This document shows, in pieces, positions 9,125-22,519 of a stretch of DNA of 64,000 nt. The stretch covers positions 66,847-130,846 of the forward strand of contig JBAZHE010000001.1 in NCBI GenBank assembly GCA_041652555.1, given 5' to 3'. The position numbers and the translations under genes were made by a program. Position 1 is the first letter of the stretch. Each line of letters begins with the position of its first letter. The notes beneath the pieces are model-generated. The model was not told the DNA's origin. It ran no database searches and saw nothing but the letters and a program-made list of their open reading frames with translations. The stretch comes from Patescibacteria group bacterium (GTDB lineage: Bacteria > Patescibacteriota > Patescibacteriia > Patescibacteriales > WJLG01).

Positions 9125-9400
9125 ATGGCCAGATTTTTAATTATTTTATTTATAATATTTCTTTTTCCTGTGCAGATTCGGGCGTCAGAGATTACCGGAA
9201 GAATAAGCACAAATCCGAAAAAAAGTGATTTTGTCAGTTCCAATTTTAATAATGCTGGGAATGAGAGTGGTACAAAAGAAGTTAAGGGAATAAAAATAAC
9301 AAACGAAGCAAAAAGGAATATTTGGCAAAATATTTATTCTCTCCTTGTAAGGTTTGTGAAGTTTATTATAGGTATTGTTGCTTTGCCTTGGCGGATTTGA
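9125..9400 (+). CDS. Small secreted/membrane hypothetical protein
   Basis: 91-aa ORF with a signal-like N-terminus (LIILFIIFLFPVQIRA), tightly following the LTD gene. Confidence 0.45.
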   Translation: MARFLIILFIIFLFPVQIRASEITGRISTNPKKSDFVSSNFNNAGNESGTKEVKGIKITNEAKRNIWQNIYSLLVRFVKFIIGIVALPWRI

Positions 9401-9455
9401 TAGAAAAGAGTTTAATAAAAAAAGAGAATGGTTTAATCCGTTCTCTTTTTGTAAT

Positions 9456-10094
9456 TTAAAAATATTTTAGTAATATTGTTACTGGTTTAAAAGTCTTTCG
9501 GTGAATTTCGCAGGGGCCGAATTGTTTTAAGGCTTCCATGTGAAATTTTGTTCCATAGCCGGCGTGTTTAGCGAAACCGTATTGCGGATATTTTTTGTCG
9601 TATTCATCCATAAGGCGGTCGCGCGTTACCTTGGCAACAATAGAAGCGGCGGCAATAGAAAAAATCAGCGCGTCGCCATTAATGATCGCTTCTTGGCGTA
9701 AGCTTAAATTTGGTATAGGGAATTTTCCATCCACCAAAAGAATATCCGGTTTGGATTTTAAATTTCCCAAAGCCATTTTCATCGCCAAAAATGTCGCTTG
9801 TAAAATATTTATCCGATCAATGGTTTGATGATTAACAACGCCAACACCAATTTCAAAAAAATTTTCTTTAATAATATCAAAAAGTTCTTCGCGTTTTTTG
9901 GCGGATATTTTCTTGGAATCGTTAATACCTTTTAATTTTTCTAATTTGACAGAATCAAGAAGTATTTCCGGATTCAAAACTGCCACTGCCGCCACAACCG
10001 GCCCAGCCAAAGGTCCACGCCCAGCCTCATCTAGTCCAGCTACTAATTTAAAACCCTGCATAAAAAGTGAATTTTCTTTATTGATTTCTAGCAT
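9456..10094 (-). CDS. rnhB: Ribonuclease HII
   Basis: GLDEAGRGPLAGPVVAAA and DSKK motifs. Confidence 0.92.
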   Translation of the reverse strand: MLEINKENSLFMQGFKLVAGLDEAGRGPLAGPVVAAVAVLNPEILLDSVKLEKLKGINDSKKISAKKREELFDIIKENFFEIGVGVVNHQTIDRINILQATFLAMKMALGNLKSKPDILLVDGKFPIPNLSLRQEAIINGDALIFSIAAASIVAKVTRDRLMDEYDKKYPQYGFAKHAGYGTKFHMEALKQFGPCEIHRKTFKPVTILLKYF

Positions 10095-10103
10095 AAGCGA
10101 ATT

Positions 10104-10955
10104 TTACAATAAGTCTTTAATTTTATCAAATTGCGTGACAGCGACTTTAGTATAAATTTGGGTTGTTTCCAGGCGTTCGTGTCCGAGTAAGGATTGGATA
10201 TAGCGAATATCTAGACCACTTTCCAAGAGGTGAGTGGCGAAGCTATGTCGGAAAGAATGAGGGGAGACCGGTTTATTTAAGCCGGCTTTTTTTGTATTTT
10301 GACTGACAATCGCTTGGATTGTTCGTGTTGTTAGACTGCCTCCGCGCATTGATTCAAAAACATATTCCAGCGGTTTGAATTCAGCTAAATATTTTTCAAT
10401 ATTTCTTAAAACAACCTTAGAAATAATTGTAACTCTATCCTTGGCACCTTTTGCGCCCTTGAGGTGAATAATCTTGCGATTAAAATTGATGTCATTAATT
10501 TTCAAGGAAACAACTTCACTGACGCGCAGGCCAGAACAGTAGAGTATTTGAATGATTAGTTTGTGCTTAATATTGTTGCAGGCATTAATAATATATAAAA
10601 TTTCTTTTTTAGAAAGCACGACTGGTAGTTTTTTGTCTTTTTTGGCACGTGGGAGGTTGAAGAAAAATTTACGATAAAGGATTTTTTCAAAATAAAATTT
10701 CAAAGCACTATAAGCGGTGTTTAAGGTGGAAGAAGAAAGTCCTTTGTCGCATAAAGATTCCAAATAATTTCGAATATGCCCATTTGTGATTTCTTTGGGG
10801 TTTTTACTTGCAAAATTCAATATTTCAGTGATATAATGCAGATAGGATTTGATAGTTTTTTGGCTAAATTTACGCAACTTCATTTCTTGTTTTAGCCCAA
10901 AAATCGGATCTTTGCTTAAATATTGATAGTTTTCTTGTAAAAAGTTTCCATTCAT
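10104..10955 (-). CDS. Tyrosine site-specific recombinase (Xer-like, SAM-like N-terminal domain); candidate cassette recombinase
   Basis: Catalytic set: R in SGLRVSE, K in KGAKDR, HSFRH, LGH, Y in QIYTKV. 283 aa. About 58 residues lie between the KDR and HSFRH boxes, so there is no IntI-type insertion. Confidence 0.9.
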   Translation of the reverse strand: MNGNFLQENYQYLSKDPIFGLKQEMKLRKFSQKTIKSYLHYITEILNFASKNPKEITNGHIRNYLESLCDKGLSSSTLNTAYSALKFYFEKILYRKFFFNLPRAKKDKKLPVVLSKKEILYIINACNNIKHKLIIQILYCSGLRVSEVVSLKINDINFNRKIIHLKGAKGAKDRVTIISKVVLRNIEKYLAEFKPLEYVFESMRGGSLTTRTIQAIVSQNTKKAGLNKPVSPHSFRHSFATHLLESGLDIRYIQSLLGHERLETTQIYTKVAVTQFDKIKDLL

Positions 10956-11008
10956 ATCTTTATTATGATTAGAAAATTATATTAATATTTTAACTAATTT
11001 AAAATAAA
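10921..11008. repeat. Direct repeat copy 1 (recombinase 5' codons plus upstream region)
   Basis: tattgatagttttcttgtaaaaagtttccattcat...ttttaactaatttaaaataaa recurs at 11694..11781, roughly 80 percent identical by eye. Confidence 0.8.
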
Positions 11009-11054
11009 GCGACAATCATTTTGTATCAAGATTTGTATGGTCTCTCCGTGTCTC

Positions 11055-11086
11055 TTGACAGTAGTATCGTGATACGATATTATAAT
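11055..11086 (+). promoter_or_regulatory. Putative higBA promoter with palindromic operator
   Basis: TTGACA (11055..11060) and TATAAT (11081..11086). The spacer is long (20 nt) and contains the inverted repeat GTATC-GT-GATAC. Confidence 0.45.
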
Positions 11087-11094
11087 TGTAGGTT

Positions 11095-11376
11095 ATGATA
11101 AAAAGTTTTAAATCCAAAGAGGCGGAGAAGATTTTTAACCGAGGATATTCTTTAAAACTTCCGTCCGATATTCAAAGAACGGCCCTACGCAAATTATCAA
11201 TGATTCAAGCGGCTATCGCTATTAATGATTTACGGATACCGCCAGCTAACCATTTAGAGCTATTAAAAGGCGATAAGTGTGGTCGGTACAGCATTAGAAT
11301 TAATGATCAATGGAGAATTTGCTTTGTTTGGCAATCGGGGGATGCCTATGAAGTTGAAATAGAAGATTATCATTAA
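11095..11376 (+). CDS. higB: HigB toxin (RelE/ParE superfamily, plasmid maintenance system killer)
   Basis: 93 aa with the typical HigB pattern (FKSKEAEKIF...HLELLKGDKCGRYSIRINDQWRICF). Toxin-first order, with HigA downstream. Confidence 0.88.
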   Translation: MIKSFKSKEAEKIFNRGYSLKLPSDIQRTALRKLSMIQAAIAINDLRIPPANHLELLKGDKCGRYSIRINDQWRICFVWQSGDAYEVEIEDYH

Positions 11377-11390
11377 AAAATTACAACAAT

Positions 11391-11693
11391 ATGATAAAGA
11401 AAATACAGCCAATTCATCCAGGTGAAATTTTGCAAGAGGAGTTTTTACTACCTTTTAAGCTTAGCCAGTATCGCCTGGCTAAGGATATTGCCGTGGCTCC
11501 AATCAGAATTAGTGAAATAATCCGCGGTTCGCGTGCCATCAGTGCTGATACTGCGTTGCGTTTGGGAAAATACTTTAATGTTTCGCCGGAATTTTGGCTA
11601 AATTTGCAGTCGCACTATGAGCTAGCTGTGGAAAGTGAGGAGTTAAGTGGAGTTCTAAAAAATAAAGTTAAGGTTTTTGAATTCGCTGTTTAG
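11391..11693 (+). CDS. higA: HigA antitoxin (XRE-type HTH)
   Basis: HPGEILQEEFL...LAKDIAVAPIRISEIIRG...TALRLGKYF, a HigA-family HTH. Confidence 0.88.
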   Translation: MIKKIQPIHPGEILQEEFLLPFKLSQYRLAKDIAVAPIRISEIIRGSRAISADTALRLGKYFNVSPEFWLNLQSHYELAVESEELSGVLKNKVKVFEFAV

Positions 11694-11781
11694 TATTGAT
11701 GGTTTATTGTAAAAAAATTTCCATTCATACTCCAGTATGATTAGAAGTTTGTATAATAATTTTAACTAATTTTAAAATAAA
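11694..11781. repeat. Direct repeat copy 2, including a 12-codon remnant of the recombinase 5' end
   Basis: The minus strand reads ATGAATGGAAATTTTTTT... (MNGNFF..., stop after 12 codons). Starts right at the higA stop codon. Confidence 0.8.
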
Positions 11782-11790
11782 TAACAACAA

Positions 11791-11829
11791 CTTCGCATAT
11801 ACCTTGTTCTACGAAATAAATTTTTTATC
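11791..11829 (+). other. Array-proximal junction: solo right arm (L'-like plus GTT box plus extended arm) of an attC-like site
   Basis: cttcgcatatacctt-GTTCTACG-aaataaattttttatc. The outer 24 nt match the reverse complement of 12587..12610 at 22/24 positions. Confidence 0.65.
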
Positions 11830-11962
11830 TAGTCGGTAATTTTAAGCTTAGTGATTTGAATGGTGACAGAAATTTTAATTTTTTTTATTAATTCAATAGG
11901 GGAAATAAGGAGTTTTTTCTGCTCTCGGAAGTCGCAGAAAAAATAAGTTATCAAAATTATTT

Positions 11963-12100
11963 ATGAATAAAACGTGGCATTTAAAAAATAAAATTCCAGC
12001 CAAAGCAACATTGGAGCAACGAATAGATTGGCACAAAAATCATCAAAAGTATTGTGCGTGCCGAGAGGTGCCGAAAAGTTTATTAAAATATTTTAAATAA
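11963..12100 (+). CDS. Small Cys-containing protein (45 aa), below the ORF-track cutoff
   Basis: MNKTWHLKNKIPAKATLEQRIDWHKNHQKYCACREVPKSLLKYFK, preceded by AAGGAG plus a hairpin leader. Lies 16 nt upstream of the VOC gene. Confidence 0.5.
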   Translation: MNKTWHLKNKIPAKATLEQRIDWHKNHQKYCACREVPKSLLKYFK

Positions 12101-12116
12101 ATTAAACAACAATTTT

Positions 12117-12476
12117 ATGATTAAAGATTATGACAATTTTTTCTTGCCCGTGAATAGTCTGGATGAGGCTAAACTGTTTTACGGCCAGACACTTGGTCTT
12201 TCTGTGAAATTTGATTTTTCTGATGCGGGGATGACTGCTTTTAAAGTCGGTGACCAAGAGCCGGCAATCATCGTAAAAGATATTAAAAAATTTCCCGACG
12301 CAAAAGTAACTACATGGTTTGTGGTGGATGATGTTCTGATTGAGTACAAAAATCTTAAAGAGAAAGGAGTTTCTTTTTTATCAGAACCATTTGAAATTTA
12401 TACTGGTTTGGCTGCGGAATTTGAAGATCCATTTGGCAATAGATTGGGAATTACCGACTATTCAAAGAAAAAATAA
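12117..12476 (+). CDS. VOC/glyoxalase-bleomycin-resistance family protein
   Basis: 119 aa with the single beta-alpha-beta-beta-beta module pattern (FYGQTLGL...FEDPFGNRLGI). Confidence 0.8.
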   Translation: MIKDYDNFFLPVNSLDEAKLFYGQTLGLSVKFDFSDAGMTAFKVGDQEPAIIVKDIKKFPDAKVTTWFVVDDVLIEYKNLKEKGVSFLSEPFEIYTGLAAEFEDPFGNRLGITDYSKKK

Positions 12477-12482
12477 TAAGGA

Positions 12483-12533
12483 GTTTTGAAAAAATGGAAT
12501 TCACCCCTAACCCCTCTTCCATTTTTTTAAAAC
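12483..12533. repeat. Cassette 3' hairpin (GTTTTGA...TCAAAAC stem, conserved 17-nt loop)
   Basis: gttttgaaaaaatggaa / ttccatttttttaaaac around the loop ttcacccctaacccctc. Confidence 0.75.
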
Positions 12534-12586
12534 AAAAAATTAAATTTTCTTAGATGCAGTCTCAAATTTAGTTTAACAAAAATCGA

Positions 12587-12748
12587 GATAAAAAATTTAC
12601 ATCGTAGAACAAGGAATATCTGGTTCAATAATTTTTCAATATAGATTACAATAAGGAATAAAAAATTATTTCACCCATATTTTTGCTCCGCTAACGCTGC
12701 GCAAAAACATCAGATATTCCTAATAGTTGTCTGAAATATTTTTTTGTC
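12587..12748 (+). repeat. attC-like site J2 (162 bp)
   Basis: R''-like cgtagAAC (AAC 12608..12610), inner arm aaggaatatctg, loop of about 88 nt, cagatattcct, then GTTgtctg (GTT 12726..12728). Confidence 0.7.
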
Positions 12749-12832
12749 TTTAGCGGTAATTTAAAATTTTGGTGCATTGAACAAAGACGAAAATTTGATT
12801 TTTAATTTATTTAAAGAGGGGTAAAAAGGAAT

Positions 12833-13417
12833 ATGTTTCAATATATAGTTTTAATCGGAGCGGTCGTGCAGTTGGTTGGTGTATTTGTTTATATTCGAGC
12901 AACTGTTCGTGGCGAAACAAAACCGAATAGAGTCACTTGGTTAATGTGGTCTGTGGCGCCATTGATTGGATCTGTTGCAGCTTTTTCTGACGGCGTTCGT
13001 TGGGCGGTGCTTCCAGTTTTTATGTCTGGTTTTGCGCCACTGCTTGTTTTTATTGCTTCTTTTGTAAATCCCAAATCATATTGGAAGCTTGAAAAATTTG
13101 ATTATGTTTGTGGAGCTTTTTCAATTTTGGCATTAGTACTTTGGGGGATTACAAAAGAACCATTGATTGCGATTATTTTTTCAATCGCCAGTGATGGATT
13201 TGCGGCAGTGCCAACTATTATTAAATCTTGGAAACATCCAGATTCTGAATCCGTCGAAGCTTACACTACTGGGTTGTTCAACTCATTAACAAGCTTTTTT
13301 GCACTGAGAACATTTGGTATTTCAGAATTGGCCTTTCCAATATATTTAGTTTTGGTAAATTCGTCATTGATTGCCGCTGTTTATAAAGGGCGATTGAAAA
13401 AAATAATCGCAAAATAA
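12833..13417 (+). CDS. Multi-pass membrane protein, unknown function (cassette ORF)
   Basis: 194 aa with about 6 hydrophobic helices and an AAAGGA SD. Confidence 0.7.
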   Translation: MFQYIVLIGAVVQLVGVFVYIRATVRGETKPNRVTWLMWSVAPLIGSVAAFSDGVRWAVLPVFMSGFAPLLVFIASFVNPKSYWKLEKFDYVCGAFSILALVLWGITKEPLIAIIFSIASDGFAAVPTIIKSWKHPDSESVEAYTTGLFNSLTSFFALRTFGISELAFPIYLVLVNSSLIAAVYKGRLKKIIAK

Positions 13418-13420
13418 GGA

Positions 13421-13471
13421 GTTTTGAATTTTTGGCATTCACCCCTGACCCCTCTGCCAAAAATCCAAAAC
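13421..13471. repeat. Cassette 3' hairpin, second copy
   Basis: gttttgaatttttggca / tgccaaaaatccaaaac around the loop ttcacccctgacccctc. The stem sequence covaries relative to the other copies. Confidence 0.75.
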
Positions 13472-13523
13472 AAAAATCAAATTTTCTTTTAGAATAACCA
13501 AAGTTTGTGCCAATAAAATAGAA

Positions 13524-13743
13524 GACAAAAAAATACATCAGACAACACGGCACATGCGGTTCAGAAATTTTGCGCAATTATAATTCAAGGTATGCAAAAT
13601 TTCTTCTCCCAAATTGCGCTGACGATATGGCAAATTTGGTGATATAATCAAGTAAAGCGATAATTAACAAGTTCAATCAATAATCCACGGCGCAACTTCG
13701 CATGTGCCGAAACGTTATACGCAATTCAAAAAATATTTTTCTG
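13524..13743 (+). repeat. attC-like site J3 (220 bp)
   Basis: cagacAAC (13544..13546), inner arm cggcacatgcgg, loop of about 130 nt containing TGaTATAAT, then cgcatgtgccg and GTTatacg (13714..13716). Confidence 0.7.
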
Positions 13744-13865
13744 ATAATAAGGAGTTTTGATAGGCAAAAAATAAGAATAAATTTGTTTTTTATTTAATTT
13801 AACAGGGGAACAAGGTGTTTTCTCCGCTCCGCCACAAAAACGATTTATTAATTTACATTTGAAAT

Positions 13866-14507
13866 ATGGCGTCAGAAAATTTTGAATTGAACCAAAAACC
13901 GGAAGTAAGCATTAATTTAATAGAGAGAATCGAAAAATTAGAAAAGATTAAAACTCCAGAAGAATTATTGTCGTTCATGAAAAAGAATATAAATTATGGT
14001 TTTATTGGTAAAGACGACGATAAAGTATATTCTCCTCGGCAAGAAGGCTGGGGTGTAGGAAAACAACCGGAAGCAAGATTACAAAGTCCTGAAGAACTTC
14101 TGAAAAGTGGTTATGGGGCTTGTTGGGAACAGACGGATTTTGAAAAACAATGGTTTGCGAAAAATAATTTTGAGTTTAAAACCCTCCTTTTGATGTTTGG
14201 AAAAGATATCAGTCAAAAAAATCCAGCCCATACGTTGTTAGCATATAAAAAAGACGATAAATGGCACTGGTTTGAAAACACACTCGATAAATATAGCGGA
14301 ATTTATGAATTTGATGATTTAGAGGATTTAATTGAGTATGCCAAAACAGTACTTATAAATAATGCTTTTAATAATGGGGCTACAGAAAACGATATTAAAG
14401 AATATAAATTGTACGACTATGATATGCCAGCATATGGCTGTAGCACTGATGAATTCATTGGGAAAATAAAATTAAATTCTAGAAATCAGGAAAGAAAAGG
14501 AAAATAA
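13866..14507 (+). CDS. Hypothetical protein with a possible transglutaminase/papain-like Cys-His core
   Basis: GYGACWEQTDF ... HTLLAYKKDDKWHWFENT. The C/H/polar spacing resembles a transglutaminase-like fold, but the assignment is weak. Confidence 0.6.
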   Translation: MASENFELNQKPEVSINLIERIEKLEKIKTPEELLSFMKKNINYGFIGKDDDKVYSPRQEGWGVGKQPEARLQSPEELLKSGYGACWEQTDFEKQWFAKNNFEFKTLLLMFGKDISQKNPAHTLLAYKKDDKWHWFENTLDKYSGIYEFDDLEDLIEYAKTVLINNAFNNGATENDIKEYKLYDYDMPAYGCSTDEFIGKIKLNSRNQERKGK

Positions 14508-14600
14508 AGGAGTTTTGGAAAAAAGGAATCCGTTATTGTATTTTTCGAAAGATCGAAATCATGATAAAATATAGATAAAGTCGAACTAATCTCAATATTC

Positions 14601-15434
14601 ATGACAAAGAAACAAAAAATAAAAGTTGAAGGTATTGAAATAGTCACTTTTACCAAAGATAATAGCGATTATATTTCTTTAACCGATATTGCAAAACATA
14701 AAAATTCAGAGGCCGGCTTGGTTATTTCCCATTGGCTAAGCACTCGTTTTGCCATTGAATTCATGGGGATATGGGAAAAAATGAATAATCCCAATTTTAA
14801 AGTTACTGAATTCAGTAACTTTAAAAATCAAAGCGGCGCCAATGGTTTTGTATTGTCTGTCCAGCAATGGGTCAATAAAACTAGCGCTATTGGAATTTTT
14901 GCCACAAGAGGGCGCTATAATAGCGGTACTTTCGCTCACAAGGACATTGCCTTTGAATTTGCTTCTTGGATTTCAGCGGAATTTAAGTTTTATCTCATCA
15001 AAGAATTTCAGCGATTAAAGGAAGATGAAAATAACAGGCAAAAGTTAGAATGGAATCTCCAGCGAACACTGGCAAAAATCAACTACAAAATTCATACCGA
15101 TGCCATAAAGGAGAAATTAATCCCCCTTGAATTAACCAAGGAACAGATTAATATGGAATATGCCAGTGAAGCGGATTTGCTCAATGTTGCATTATTCGGA
15201 ATAACCGCAAAAACGTGGCGAGATCAAAATAAAGAATTAGATGGAAACATTCGAGATTATGCCTCAATTGAACAGTTAGTGGTTCTGTCTAATCTTGAAA
15301 GTATAAACGCATTGTTAATTCGCGAAGGATTTTCCACTGAAGATCGGATTCAAAAATTAAATAGCACCGCGATAATTCAGATGAAATCGCTTTTAATAAA
15401 CACTGAAATAAAAAAATTGGAATCGCCAAAATAA
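14601..15434 (+). CDS. KilA-N domain-containing protein
   Basis: The N-terminal 130 aa match the KilA-N pattern (YISLTDIAK...W...FAHKDIAFEFASWIS), followed by a coiled C-terminal half. Confidence 0.8.
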   Translation: MTKKQKIKVEGIEIVTFTKDNSDYISLTDIAKHKNSEAGLVISHWLSTRFAIEFMGIWEKMNNPNFKVTEFSNFKNQSGANGFVLSVQQWVNKTSAIGIFATRGRYNSGTFAHKDIAFEFASWISAEFKFYLIKEFQRLKEDENNRQKLEWNLQRTLAKINYKIHTDAIKEKLIPLELTKEQINMEYASEADLLNVALFGITAKTWRDQNKELDGNIRDYASIEQLVVLSNLESINALLIREGFSTEDRIQKLNSTAIIQMKSLLINTEIKKLESPK

Positions 15435-15446
15435 AAACAATAAGGA

Positions 15447-15497
15447 GTTTTGAAAAAACGTAATTCACCCCTAACCCCTCTTCCGTTTTTTCAAAAC
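15447..15497. repeat. Cassette 3' hairpin, third copy
   Basis: gttttgaaaaaacgtaa / ttccgttttttcaaaac around the loop ttcacccctaacccctc. Confidence 0.75.
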
Positions 15498-15550
15498 AAA
15501 AAAATCAAATTTTCTTATACGTAAAGCAACGCCAGCTCAATAAAAACCAA

Positions 15551-15711
15551 GATAAAAAATTTACATCGTACAACAAGGAATATCTGGTTCAATAATTTTT
15601 CAATATTATTTATAATAAGGAACAAAAAATTATTTCACCCATATTTTTGCTCCGCTATCGCTGCGCAAAAACATCAGATATTCCTGACTGTTAGGCGTAA
15701 TTTTCACTTTT
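15551..15711 (+). repeat. attC-like site J5 (161 bp) ending in the canonical core GTTAGGC
   Basis: 15551..15685 differs from 12587..12721 at about 7 of 135 positions. Identity stops just before GTTAGGC (15690..15696). Confidence 0.75.
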
Positions 15712-22095: not shown

Positions 22096-22169
22096 GCGCC
22101 CGTAGCTCAACTGGATAGAGCGTCTGGCTTCGGACCAGAAGGTTGCGGGTTCAAGTCCTGCCGAGCGCA
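22096..22169 (+). tRNA. tRNA-Arg (anticodon TCG)
   Basis: Manual cloverleaf: acceptor gcgcccg/cgagcgc, anticodon loop cttcgga, T-loop ttcaagt. Confidence 0.85.
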
Positions 22170-22179
22170 CAGTTCAGAG

Positions 22180-22255
22180 TTCGAATTTCGAAGTGCGAGT
22201 TTCGAATTAAATTTATAAATTAGATAATTCGCACTTCGCACTTCGAAATTCGAAA
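22180..22255. repeat. Long hairpin in tRNA spacer 1 (TTCGAA-rich)
   Basis: ttcgaatttcgaagtgcga...tcgcacttcgaaattcgaa, with at least 19 contiguous complementary nt. Confidence 0.75.
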
Positions 22256-22264
22256 GTTGAAAGG

Positions 22265-22338
22265 GGCTGGGTAGCTCAGCTGGTTAGAGCACGGCACTCA
22301 TAACGCCGAGGTCGAGGGTTCAAGTCCCTCCCCCGCCA
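22265..22338 (+). tRNA. tRNA-Met (anticodon CAT; elongator-like, but Ile2 cannot be excluded)
   Basis: Manual cloverleaf: anticodon loop ctcataa, T-arm gaggg ttcaagt ccctc. One acceptor-stem mismatch. Confidence 0.8.
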
Positions 22339-22347
22339 CAATGAAAA

Positions 22348-22439
22348 GTTCGAATTACGAAATGCGAAGTTCGAATTGATTTTTTAAGAAATATTTAGTA
22401 GTATTATAATTCGCACTTCGAACTTTGTAATTCGAAATT
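22348..22439. repeat. Long hairpin in tRNA spacer 2, related to spacer 1
   Basis: agttcgaattacgaaatgcgaagttcgaatt ... aattcgcacttcgaactttgtaattcgaaatt. Confidence 0.7.
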
Positions 22440-22446
22440 TTAAATG

Positions 22447-22519
22447 GCGCTCATAGCTCAGTTGGTAGAGCAACTCCCTCTTAAGGAGATGGTCGTGGGT
22501 TCAAATCCCTCTGAGCGCA
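22447..22519 (+). tRNA. tRNA-Lys (anticodon CTT)
   Basis: Manual cloverleaf: acceptor gcgctca/tgagcgc, anticodon loop ctcttaa, T-loop ttcaaat. Confidence 0.8.

Follow-up and report, generated by a model that had tools for sequence, protein, structure and literature searches.

How did a higBA toxin-antitoxin pair come to lie between a recombinase gene and the recombination site at the base of a cassette-like gene array, and why is it bracketed by two imperfect copies of the recombinase start and its upstream region? The locus is part of a 64-kb stretch of DNA from an uncultured member of the Patescibacteria (CPR), referred to here as the window, and an account of it has to say both which arrangement preceded the present one and how the duplication arose.

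Results

The features needed for the argument are listed below in order of position.

10104 to 10955, minus strand: tyrosine recombinase, 283 aa, XerA-type, without the IntI-specific domain
10921 to 11008, no strand: copy 1, with the live recombinase start (codons 1-12) and 53 bp of upstream region
10976 to 11003, minus strand: predicted promoter-like site of the recombinase, TTTAAA-16-TATAAT, within copy 1 (10/12 in a consensus scan)
11009 to 11023: diverged continuation of copy 1, GCGACAATCATTTTG, the counterpart of TAACAACAACTTCGC in the left flank of the site
11055 to 11083, plus strand: predicted higBA promoter, TTGACA-17-TATTAT, 11/12 consensus matches
11095 to 11376, plus strand: higB toxin, 93 aa (PF05015, E = 7.9e-21, full length)
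11391 to 11693, plus strand: higA antitoxin, 100 aa, HTH (TIGR02607, 102.5 bits, cutoff 47.7)
11690 to 11728, minus strand: dead recombinase-start remnant, 12 codons (MNGNFFTINHQY) and a stop overlapping the higA stop
11694 to 11781, no strand: copy 2, the displaced recombinase start and upstream region
11782 to 11817, plus strand: conserved recombination site (attI-like or dif-like), ...AACAACAACTTCGCATATACCTTG|TTCTACGAAAT
11807 to 12727, plus strand: first cassette-like unit, a 45-aa ORF and a glyoxalase-fold ORF (Pfam Glyoxalase)

Local alignment gives the exact span of the direct repeat as 10921-11008 and 11694-11781, with a period of 773 bp and an identity of 77-80% depending on the treatment of gaps, in agreement with the first-pass annotation, which had placed an 88-bp segment at the same coordinates with roughly 80% identity. 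The alignment score of 95 compares with a mean of 23.3 (sd 3.9, maximum 39) in 1000 Markov shuffles, and no other alignment within the 64-kb window exceeds 39. The recombinase ATG lies within copy 1 at 10955-10953 on the minus strand. Copy 2 begins at the base directly after the higA stop codon (TAG, 11691-11693), and its minus strand reads ATG AAT GGA AAT TTT TTT ACA ATA AAC CAT CAA TAC TAA, a start that terminates after 12 codons as that annotation had also reported. At the related locus L129, the remnant in the copy 2 position has been trimmed to about 11 nt of coding sequence.

Beyond the ends of the repeat, weak homology between the copies continues to about 11023 and 11797, and past 11009-11023 the remainder of the site is missing from the copy 1 side. 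The distal 15 nt of copy 1 have six or seven differences from the site, yet they are conserved across three lineages; the GCGACAATCATTTTG-type variant is also present in L128 and L129, and copy 1 of L120 retains AACAACAACTTCGC. In L120 the repeat is 104 bp long with copies 89% identical, and it ends at CTTCGC. The repeat originally extended at least to this ...CTTCGC, for a length of about 104 bp. That copy 1 once reached the G|TT crossover is not supported, as the 12-15 nt past CTTCGC match the site at chance level, and neither end of the repeat coincides with G|TT. The copy 1 equivalent of the 27-nt site has 48% identity to that of the relative L002, compared with 100% for copy 2.

The segment between the copies contains higB and higA only, with the toxin gene first and a gap of 14 nt between the two, and there is no integrase inside the repeat-bounded segment. 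The first-pass annotation was correct in describing higBA, with a promoter of its own, as inserted between the two copies, the promoter being the strong one predicted at 11055-11083. A palindrome, ATCGTGATACGAT (ATCGT-GAT-ACGAT), lies between the promoter hexamers, is conserved in L120, L121, and L039, and is likely to be the HigA operator, judging from its position and conservation. With this gene order, a RelE-fold toxin and an HTH antitoxin, the predicted promoter, and the palindrome, higBA is by its sequence features a type II toxin-antitoxin system of the HigBA kind. In three different contexts the unit has the same limits: it starts about 15 nt before the -35 box and finishes with the higA stop. 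No attC-like inverted repeat was found in 11009-11693 or at its borders, and without such a site higBA does not qualify as a cassette. Its insertion at the site as a regular cassette is likewise rejected, the DNA to the left of G11806 being the conserved platform arm, with no attC end.

The first GTT has its G at 11806, as previously noted, with 24 nt separating the end of copy 2 from this G, and these 24 nt are the conserved site. The core of the site, AACAACAACTTCGCATATAmCTTG|TT, is conserved across all relatives; the site agrees with that of L002 at 27 of 27 positions and with those of L003 and L004 at 25-26 of 27. One possible reading of it is an imperfect 11-6-11 dyad (ACTTCGCATAT/AmCTTG/TTAGGCGAAAT) whose arms match at 7-8 of 11 positions. 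Gene content is variable to the right of G11806: L126 and L127, which have identical recombinase proteins, part directly after CTTGTTA, and many contigs terminate at the site, about 105 bp upstream of the recombinase gene. The primary insertion site thus adjoins the recombinase gene, and content varies directly after G|TT, as in an integron.

The first cassette-like unit terminates in an attC-like imperfect palindrome (12586-12735), and the 5' end of that site can pair with the first 25-34 nt of the unit (I1, 91% complementarity). The single-strand fold of this site has z = -3.4 to -4.4, and the attC-like folds in the array, which are branched, have z = -2.8 to -4.5. The inverted half-sites of the array, each ending in GTT, are at 12604-12622/12708-12733, 13538-13558/13703-13722, and 15568-15586/15672-15696. 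GTTAGGC fits the R' consensus RYYYAAC/GTTRRRY, and GTTGTCT and GTTATAC do not. The conserved motifs of the array match no Rfam family, there is no GC skew switch within the 64-kb window, and integron-like arrays are not described from Patescibacteria/CPR in the literature that we searched.

The recombinase has the Pfam domains Phage_integrase and SAM-like, is collinear with P. abyssi XerA (4a8e), and scores 249 bits with the XerA-type model NF040815 (cutoff 220). The IntI model TIGR02249 gives 205 bits in a match broken into two pieces (cutoff 265), and PRK15417 gives 133 bits (cutoff 435). In the alignment to VchIntIA (2a3v), query residues 18-191 correspond to chain residues 7-183 and query residues 201-270 to chain residues 236-305; chain residues 184-235 have no counterpart, and the recombinase lacks some 43 residues of the IntI-specific domain. 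An IntI-specific additional domain around patch III is a hallmark of integron integrases (Messier & Roy 2001, cited in PMC9668308). The IntI-model scores and the absence of this domain rule out a canonical integron integrase, and together with the XerA-type score they show that the platform is not a canonical integron. Scanning viral contigs with the recombinase yielded no relevant match.

The two copies are also found together, at 99.8-100% identity, on each of four further contigs that differ in sample and assembler (JGI 3300014204, JGI 3300035208, ENA ERZ27247350, and Logan SRR18595299). A fifth contig, ERZ27247358, agrees with the two-copy layout.

Close informative loci were recovered through exact-protein look-ups. 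A single copy is present in L002, L003, L004, L005, L006, L008, L012, L017, and L123-L127, in the order recombinase start, upstream region of about 55 bp, conserved core, and GTT, and none of these relatives has higBA within 6 kb. A single ancestral copy beside the junction had been proposed from the window's sequence, and it is borne out by these closest relatives without higBA; the predicted counterpart, a higBA-less locus with a single copy and then GTT, does exist in related genomes. Copy 1 is 84% identical to the single copy of L002 over 88 bp, and copy 2 is 75% identical to it. Identity to relatives is a poor guide to which copy is the resident one, since selection acts on copy 1 and not on copy 2, and copies of 104 bp are too short for that choice or for ordering the events by phylogeny.

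At least three other lineages share the layout of recombinase, copy 1, higBA, copy 2, and site, with a nucleotide identity of 80-84%, and the insertion is therefore old and common to several lineages. L120 has the complete order through to GTT (83.6% nucleotide identity over 1028 bp), as does L129; L128 contains the left side of the layout, and in two further contigs (JGI 3300075153) the recombinase-higBA order is seen from gene order alone. The identity of the two copies within L120 (89%) is greater than that between genomes (81-84%), which implies that gene conversion or noise is involved. On the left, rnhB lies beside the recombinase as it does in the single-copy relatives L003 and L123-L126. 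Recombinase identity fails to separate loci with and without higBA, a pattern that fits repeated gain or loss of higBA via the repeats.

At two loci, L121 and L122, a close relative of higBA (86% in HigB) lies beside the recombinase gene, at the 3' end of the latter. A Bro-N-like gene, and not copy 1, precedes this higBA, and its higA stop is 1 nt from the stop of the full-length, convergent recombinase gene. No flanking repeat was detected around higBA at either locus. The first-pass annotation had held that higBA at a homologous locus without any duplication would count against its proposal; L121 and L122 fit that description in part, although we read them as insertions at a different position. 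In a metagenome scan with HigB, the matches listed have at most 77% identity, and none among them lies beside such a recombinase.

The bracketing is not peculiar to this platform: many unrelated loci with the same family of higBA are also flanked by long local repeats. Imperfect direct repeats of 46-146 bp flank higBA at 11 of 65 loci of the family, compared with 5 of 441 control pairs (Fisher p = 1.8e-7), and they are made of local DNA, namely the ends of local genes. At L116 it consists of the last 46 nt, at the 3' end, of a tRNA-Thr that is itself intact, and at L039 of the start of a small ORF.

Discussion

We have described a recombination platform in which the two copies of the recombinase start are probably the flanking repeats left by insertion of higBA into an ancestor with a single copy, followed by a division of function between them. 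Before the insertion, the order was recombinase start, about 55 bp containing the promoter, the site with its conserved core, and the exchangeable cassette-like genes. In the present arrangement, copy 1 is joined to the body of the recombinase and supplies its first 12 codons and the predicted promoter but has no usable site, whereas copy 2 is joined to the site and the gene array, with its recombinase fragment decaying. The event itself would have been the insertion of a self-contained higBA module of about 0.65 kb, from promoter to stop codon, between the recombinase start and the site.

The flanking repeats across the higBA family point to att-type or Campbell-type insertion, and we tentatively propose that the incoming DNA brought its own copy of the target segment and recombined within the homology, either in an att-type event or, as a small circle, by Campbell-type integration. 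Integration would then have resembled that of integrative islands at gene ends, and the intact recombinase gene would have been rebuilt from the incoming copy (copy 1) with displacement of the resident start (copy 2). The repeats at 11 of the 65 family loci and the tRNA-Thr case, a classic signature of islands, favor this proposal, as do the conserved but diverged distal 15 nt of copy 1 in three lineages. There is no integrase inside the segment, and an att-type event therefore requires an enzyme that acted in trans or has been lost. It counts against an incoming copy 1, unless copy 2 decayed faster, that copy 1 is closer to the relatives than copy 2 is; the same module is found at the other end of the recombinase in L121/L122 with no repeat, and duplication in place followed by divergence fits the same data.

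Such a duplication in situ, at the time of insertion, seems to us a rather unlikely origin, although it accounts for a good deal. Staggered breaks about 100 bp apart, or template switching at a replication fork, would allow foreign higBA to be joined by microhomology with fill-in duplicating the target, and the copies would then diverge to 78-89%; no homologous segment is imported. The repeat is always local target DNA and is variable in length (46-146 bp), a pattern that staggered or illegitimate joins would produce and a fixed att site would not, and there is a short similarity at the left junction (GGATC..TT.A.TATTGAT and GAATT..TT.A.TATTGAT). The two copies have diverged by 11-22%, comparable to the 16-19% that separates lineages sharing the insertion, and the closer similarity of copy 1 to relatives is expected if the copies began identical and selection acted on copy 1 only. 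However, we know of no bacterial mechanism that routinely makes target duplications of 50-150 bp, the repeat at the tRNA-Thr 3' end is a textbook product of integrase-type integration, and the conservation of the distal 15 nt of copy 1 in three lineages is unlike free decay.

Two further models fare worse. In the first, which we regard as very improbable, two platforms were fused: copy 2, the site, and the array derive from a second platform whose recombinase was deleted to 12 codons, copy 1 is part of the recombinase that survived, and higBA originally separated the platforms. In L121/L122 a full-length convergent recombinase gene comes directly after higBA, as one would expect of a junction that has yet to undergo such a deletion, and the intact site is absent from copy 1 and perfect in copy 2. 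At least two extra deletions with exact ends are needed, however, and no relative has two full recombinase genes; moreover, the left flank of rnhB and recombinase matches that of single-copy L003 and L123-L126, and higBA in L121/L122 is preceded by the Bro-N-like gene instead of copy 1.

The second, which we consider more doubtful still, has the platform recombinase itself make the duplication, by recombining the site with a look-alike inside codons 8-13 of its gene, in an exchange that involved sister chromosomes or a higBA circle. Both ends of the repeat are situated just 5' of an ATAT-N5-GTT motif (the left end TTGG^ATATTGATAGTT in the gene and the right end CTTCGC^ATATAACTTGTT in the site), and the look-alike is conserved in the close clade of L120, L123, L126, L128, and L129. 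The motif was nonetheless recognized post hoc, and it is short and AT-rich in a genome of 34% GC; the repeat ends are about 9-10 nt away from the G|TT position at which content changes, no hybrid site is seen at the junctions, and the model gives no account of the 15 nt that separate copy 1 from the higBA unit. An assembly artefact, in the form of a collapsed or chimeric join at the short repeat, is rejected and has next to no chance of being correct, for although the window comes from metagenome data, and short-read graphs can be mis-joined at repeats of about 90 bp, the independent contigs cross both copies, the diverged lineages L120 and L129 have the same layout, each with its own sequence differences, and copies that differ at about 20% of positions could not be collapsed into one another.

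Returning to insertion of higBA into a single-copy platform, HigB and HigA would constitute an addiction module at the base of the array, such that loss of the region would kill the cell. RecA-mediated deletion between the copies would release a 773-bp circle and would also be lethal. Since loss of the region would be lethal, the module may stabilize the platform formed by recombinase and site. A broader and decidedly speculative idea, which we think improbable, is that this higBA family is a small mobile unit that inserts at gene ends without a recombinase of its own. It would rebuild the gene that it interrupts and leave an imperfect duplication of 50-150 bp, being mobilized in trans or moving in and out as a small circle via the flanking repeats. 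In this CPR clade, the unit would have come to rest between the XerA-type recombinase and the site, perhaps with the help of that enzyme, given the site-like ATAT-N5-GTT motifs next to both repeat ends, and would have locked the platform in place.

Integrative islands and prophages enter gene ends and bring a replacement copy of the segment, as at tRNA 3' ends and for phage 21 in icd. The locus has the same imperfect direct repeats, one completing the target gene and the other a displaced fragment: the recombinase ORF is made whole by copy 1, and copy 2 retains a piece of 12 codons, and the tRNA-Thr of L116 is similarly configured. Unlike integrative islands, the 773-bp unit contains no integrase but the toxin-antitoxin pair alone, and it may be either a decayed island or a mini-element mobilized in trans; the recombinase lies outside the repeats and is also present in relatives without higBA. 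Taken as a single locus, this is an insertion footprint of a familiar kind, and neither new machinery nor a new mechanism.

There are also similarities to Xer systems: to single-recombinase systems in which the dif site is situated beside the gene (XerS/difSL and XerH/difH), to archaeal XerA/dif, and to Xer-dependent module arrays such as the pdif modules of Acinetobacter, which often include toxin-antitoxin pairs. Here too the protein is XerA-like, the conserved site is immediately upstream of its gene, and modules including a toxin-antitoxin pair accumulate there; unlike dif systems, the array repeats are widely spaced inverted hairpin half-sites and not 28-bp duplex copies of dif. An integron platform is resembled in the divergent recombinase beside a conserved site, in the change of content exactly after G|TT, and in cassette-like units that end in imperfect palindromes whose 5' ends are complementary to the start of the unit. 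It differs from integrons in that the palindromes are branched and about 115-200 nt long, the R boxes fit RYYYAAC/GTTRRRY loosely, and the enzyme scores as XerA.

A parallel had been drawn with the toxin-antitoxin cassettes of large chromosomal integrons, and it survives as a functional one only. As in sedentary chromosomal integrons, a promoter-bearing type II pair (higBA types being among those found there) lies within an exchangeable array driven by a recombinase, and loss of the region is expected to be penalized. However, the cassettes of the Vibrio superintegron have their own attC, are scattered through the array, and can be moved by IntI (Richard et al. 2024, PMC13108822), whereas higBA here has no attC-like site, is on the recombinase side of the site, and has a duplication of the platform around it, and the enzyme is not IntI. 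Lima-Mendez et al. (2020, PMC7157771) describe toxin-antitoxin pairs embedded in Tn3-family transposons beside res and the gene for the resolvase, which is similar in that the pair has a fixed position in the recombination module, not among the passengers, with stable establishment of the element as its proposed role. The enzymes described there are Tn3 resolvases and the setting a transposon, whereas here it is a chromosomal array, and no duplicated recombinase start around the pair is known from that account.

The locus offers a dated comparative case of an addiction module fixed inside a recombination platform. Because the recombinase start and promoter are in one copy and the site is in the other, the functions of a control region of about 100 bp become separable for study. 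The likely working site of a cassette-array system of Patescibacteria is pinned down, with a XerA-type enzyme running the array and not an integron integrase. A testable generalization is that higBA modules in this family frequently have long repeats of the local gene end on either side, a pattern with implications for the long-standing problem of the mobility of chromosomal toxin-antitoxin pairs.

The higBA module lies between two copies of the recombinase start

The window is AT-rich (33–41% GC throughout), and proteins identical to those it encodes are labelled by NCBI as coming from a Patescibacteria-group MAG. The features relevant here are as follows.

Features of the higBA locus and of the cassette-like array
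9456-10094, RNase HII gene, downstream of the recombinase 3' end
10104-10955, minus strand, tyrosine recombinase, 283 aa
10921-11008, copy 1 of the repeat
11055-11083, predicted near-consensus higBA promoter with a palindrome between the hexamers
11095-11376, plus strand, higB, divergent from the recombinase gene (PF05015, E = 7.9e-21)
11391-11693, plus strand, higA, divergent from the recombinase gene (TIGR02607, 102.5 bits against a cutoff of 47.7)
11694-11781, copy 2 of the repeat
11807-12727, 12728-13715, 13716-15690 and 15691-~16700, array units, each closing with an imperfect palindrome
22096-22519, plus strand, three-tRNA cluster, the sole Rfam matches in the window above the gathering threshold

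The first-pass annotation had described higBA as bracketed by a duplicated recombinase start, and local alignment returns the same coordinates and confirms the description in every detail. The two copies align with a score of 95, where shuffled sequences score 23.3 on average (sd 3.9, maximum 39), and no second repeat in the window exceeds 39 by local alignment. The copies are 77–80% identical, the first base of copy 2 directly follows the higA stop, and on the minus strand copy 2 retains ATGAATGGAAAT... for 12 codons before a stop that overlaps that of higA. An assembly artefact is very unlikely: five contigs that differ in sample and pipeline (JGI 3300014204, JGI 3300035208, ENA ERZ27247350, ENA ERZ27247358, and Logan SRR18595299) carry the exact HigB protein, four of them independently span both copies at 99.8–100% identity to the window, and the divergence of roughly 20% between the copies means that they cannot collapse into one another. 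The JGI 3300014204 contig, elsewhere 99.8% identical, fails to align to window positions 9275-9564 over its first 290 nt (L034:1-290), so that the match ends within the 3' portion of the RNase HII gene; strains may thus vary on this flank as well.

Relatives without higBA retain a single copy

A scan of a genome collection for the recombinase yielded 32 loci, none of which has higBA within 6 kb of the recombinase gene. In the closest relatives by recombinase protein identity (L002, 89%; L003, 82%; L004, 75%), as well as in distant CPR relatives (55–59%), the recombinase start is followed by a single conserved upstream region of ~55 bp, then by a strongly conserved core, AACAACAACTTCGCATATA(A/C)CTTGTT, and then by unrelated sequence; five loci reached via recombinase homologues (L123-L127) have the same single copy, core, and unrelated sequence. 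Relatives in which one copy leads directly into the conserved core and GTT therefore do exist, and they bear out the earlier proposal that the ancestral junction was adjacent to the recombinase. Two of these loci encode an identical recombinase protein, and their sequences (L126:1-105 and L127:1-108) part immediately after CTTGTTA, while the contigs of many relatives (including L004, L007, L010, L011, and L125) stop ~105 bp (about 70–140 bp) upstream of the recombinase start, which is at the G|TT junction. Together these observations argue that G|TT really is a point of gene-content exchange in natural populations, and indicate population-level variation of the first cassette at this junction.

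Age of the insertion and fate of the copies

Close HigB relatives (85–92% identity) were traced to their contigs. L120 (HigB 87%) is 83.6% identical to the window in nucleotide sequence over 1028 bp and is arranged like the window (recombinase start, copy 1, higBA, copy 2, core, GTT) but with a different first cassette; L129 (HigB 87%) is also of the window type and L128 (HigB 89%) contains the left half of it. Two JGI 3300075153 contigs (HigB 92% and 86%), known from gene order, have recombinase (minus), higB (plus), and higA (plus) at the same spacing, with different left neighbours (type II secretion genes in one, RNase HII and a Bro-N gene in the other). The L120 copies are 89% identical over 104 bp, with copy 1 continuing to ...AAATAACAACAACTTCGC and breaking off there; the corresponding 15 nt of copy 1 form a common diverged variant, GCGACAA(T/C)C(G/A)TTTT(G/A), in L128, L129, and the window. 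Just ~11 nt of coding sequence are left in copy 2 of L129. The extent in L120, the shared variant, and the recurrence of the layout in diverged lineages indicate that the original repeat was ~104 bp long, running from about codon 12 to CTTCGC within the left flank of the site, and that it arose once, before these lineages diverged by 16–20%. Recombinase identity does not sort higBA-bearing from higBA-less genomes, since the window protein is 89% identical to that of L002, which lacks higBA, and 85% to that of L128, which carries it, and L128 is in turn 89% identical to the higBA-less L126. Gain or loss of higBA thus appears to have happened more than once, for which the obvious routes would be deletion between the copies, or homologous recombination that transfers the block as a whole.

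The 27 nt beyond the 88-bp repeat at copy 2 match L002, L003, and L004 at 27, 26, and 25 positions respectively, whereas the corresponding 27 nt beyond copy 1 match each at 13. The 88 bp themselves show the reverse pattern, with copy 1 84% and copy 2 75% identical to L002. Copy 1 has a live start codon and a promoter-like TTTAAA-16-TATAAT, and the counterpart of the -10 box in copy 2 is TATACA. We read here a division of labour after duplication, in which copy 1 would be retained for the recombinase N-terminus and promoter, and copy 2 solely for the site, its coding remnant probably decaying.

Flanking repeats recur across the higBA family

Among 65 loci with enough flanking sequence to compare 350 nt upstream of higB with 350 nt downstream of higA, 11 have highly significant direct repeats (46–146 bp, 79–98% identity, z > 15), compared with five of 441 equally spaced control pairs reaching the same score (Fisher's p = 1.8e-7). 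The repeated sequence is local DNA that differs between loci, the genomes are unrelated, and the period is 650–1080 bp (repeat-flanked loci by handle: L039, L050, L057, L058, L066, L093, L097, L116, L119, and L120). At L039 (HigB 83%) higBA lies between two copies, 70 bp and 90% identical, of the start of a ~40-aa ORF, and at L116 an intact tRNA-Thr contributes its 3' 46 nt as the repeat, with the displaced copy on the far side of higBA. Integrative islands classically leave such a repeated tRNA 3' end. The excess over controls and the tRNA case both argue that the window bracket is one case of a recurrent pattern, in which a module occupies the end of a gene that has been restored, with a displaced piece of it remaining.

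A second arrangement is seen in L121 and L122 (HigB 86%), where the higBA unit adjoins the 3' rather than the 5' end of the recombinase gene. The genes (L121:146-1516; L122:441-1205) are, in order, a Bro-N-like gene, higB, higA, and a full-length convergent recombinase, with 1 nt between the higA and recombinase stops, and the contigs terminate within the recombinase gene; a flanking repeat was looked for in both loci and none was detectable. The unit has the same limits in these loci, in the window type, and in L039: it begins ~15 nt before the -35 box (TATTAACGC-TTGACA) and finishes with the higA stop. Given constant limits in three contexts, higBA behaves as a discrete unit, apparently set beside the recombinase in two different ways.

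Origin of the duplication

The comparisons show an insertion between the recombinase start and the site, with a ~104-bp flanking duplication and later divergence with division of function. We tentatively favor a mechanism in which incoming DNA would bring its own copy of the target and so make the duplication, either by att-type integration or by Campbell-type integration of a small circle containing higBA and a homologous segment, because of the tRNA case, the constant unit limits, the patchy distribution, and an end of copy 1 that is diverged yet conserved. Duplication in situ through staggered or illegitimate joining is the strongest competing account; it would fit the variable repeat lengths and the closer resemblance of copy 1 than copy 2 to the relatives, and we consider it somewhat less likely than an incoming copy. 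Two lesser alternatives are that two platforms fused, and that the platform's recombinase acted on its site together with a similar sequence in codons 8–13 of its own gene. The plus strand at 10916-10934, within these codons, reads TTGGATATTGATAGTT (TTAAATATTGATAGTT in the window), is found at the same position in L120, L123, L126, L128, and L129, and resembles the left arm of the platform site plus GTT (e.g. TTCGGATATAAGGAGTT in L012, another compared locus); the left end of the repeat falls within it. Both repeat ends are just 5' of ATAT-N5-GTT (TTGG^ATATTGATAGTT; CTTCGC^ATATAACTTGTT), as action of the enzyme would have it, although this motif was spotted post hoc and is short and AT-rich. 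A simple site-by-site insertion is not supported, as neither end of the repeat coincides with the G|TT crossover.

The platform and its array

With 249 bits, the recombinase exceeds the cutoff of 220 for the XerA model NF040815; it falls below the cutoffs of the integron-integrase models, and has archaeal XerA proteins as its best solved relatives. Relative to VchIntIA it is missing ~43 residues where the IntI-specific domain sits, a domain that PMC9668308, citing Messier & Roy 2001, presents as the defining feature of integron integrases. Membership of the platform among integrons is therefore not sustained, and we do not file the system as an integron, although it appears integron-like in operation. 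Each of the four array units closes with an imperfect palindrome that terminates in GTT and whose 5' end can pair with the first 9–34 nt of its own unit; the palindromes are long and branched, and their folds are more stable than those of shuffled sequences (z = -2.8 to -4.5). In the second palindrome the right half (CAACTTCGCATGTGCC...GTT) is closely similar to the platform site, for which a reading as a dif-like 11-6-11 dyad is also available. We found no description of arrays of this integron-like kind in Patescibacteria in the literature searched.

Several other elements were noted in and near the array. The attC-like sites at 12570-12728 and 15534-15692 are 91% identical over 159 nt, and unit 13716-15690 contains an ORF of 213 aa and one for a 277-aa KilA-N protein, which no recognisable site separates. 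Right after cassette ORF stops there is a conserved element (12478-12548, 13416-13486, and 15442-15512, with a partial copy at 14507-14529), in which AAGGAGTTTTG precedes a hairpin; the loop of the hairpin, TTCACCCCTRACCCCTCT, is invariant, and its stem has compensatory changes between copies (GAAAAAATGGAA/TTCCATTTTTT, TTTTTGGCA/TGCCAAAAA, and AAAAAACG/CGTTTTTT); all three copies are in the array, with 0.01 expected by chance, and the element has no Rfam match. A motif of AGGGGnAAnAAGGnGTTTT, a short GC-containing hairpin, and AAAACGATTTATT (11881-11924 and 13786-13829, with a weaker copy at 12800-12843) is ~40–60 nt upstream of cassette ORFs in several genomes, including the first-cassette ORFs of L002, L009, and L120; it has no Rfam match and may represent a promoter element or else an RNA, either leader or regulatory. 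Within the recombinase coding region, a promoter-like TTGCAA-18-TATAAT with an upstream TG (10808-10837, plus strand; a consensus match only) is directed at the array, as is Pc within intI1, and transcripts from this predicted site would cross copy 1, higBA, and copy 2.

Proposed role of higBA

From its sequence, higBA appears to be an intact, self-promoted addiction module fixed between recombinase and site, and it should penalise any deletion of the platform, also one that runs from one copy to the other. In chromosomal integrons, TA cassettes kill cells upon excessive excision (PMC13108822), and Tn3-family transposons have TA pairs next to their res site and resolvase (PMC7157771). The latter are a parallel in placement by a recombination module, although higBA here is not in a transposon. 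The parallel with stabilising integron cassettes, drawn in the first-pass annotation, stands in role, through the predicted penalty on loss, but higBA is not itself a cassette. The history proposed there was largely right, whereas the family was not, the platform being no canonical integron. Of these results, the family-wide pattern of flanking repeats most deserves to be followed up.
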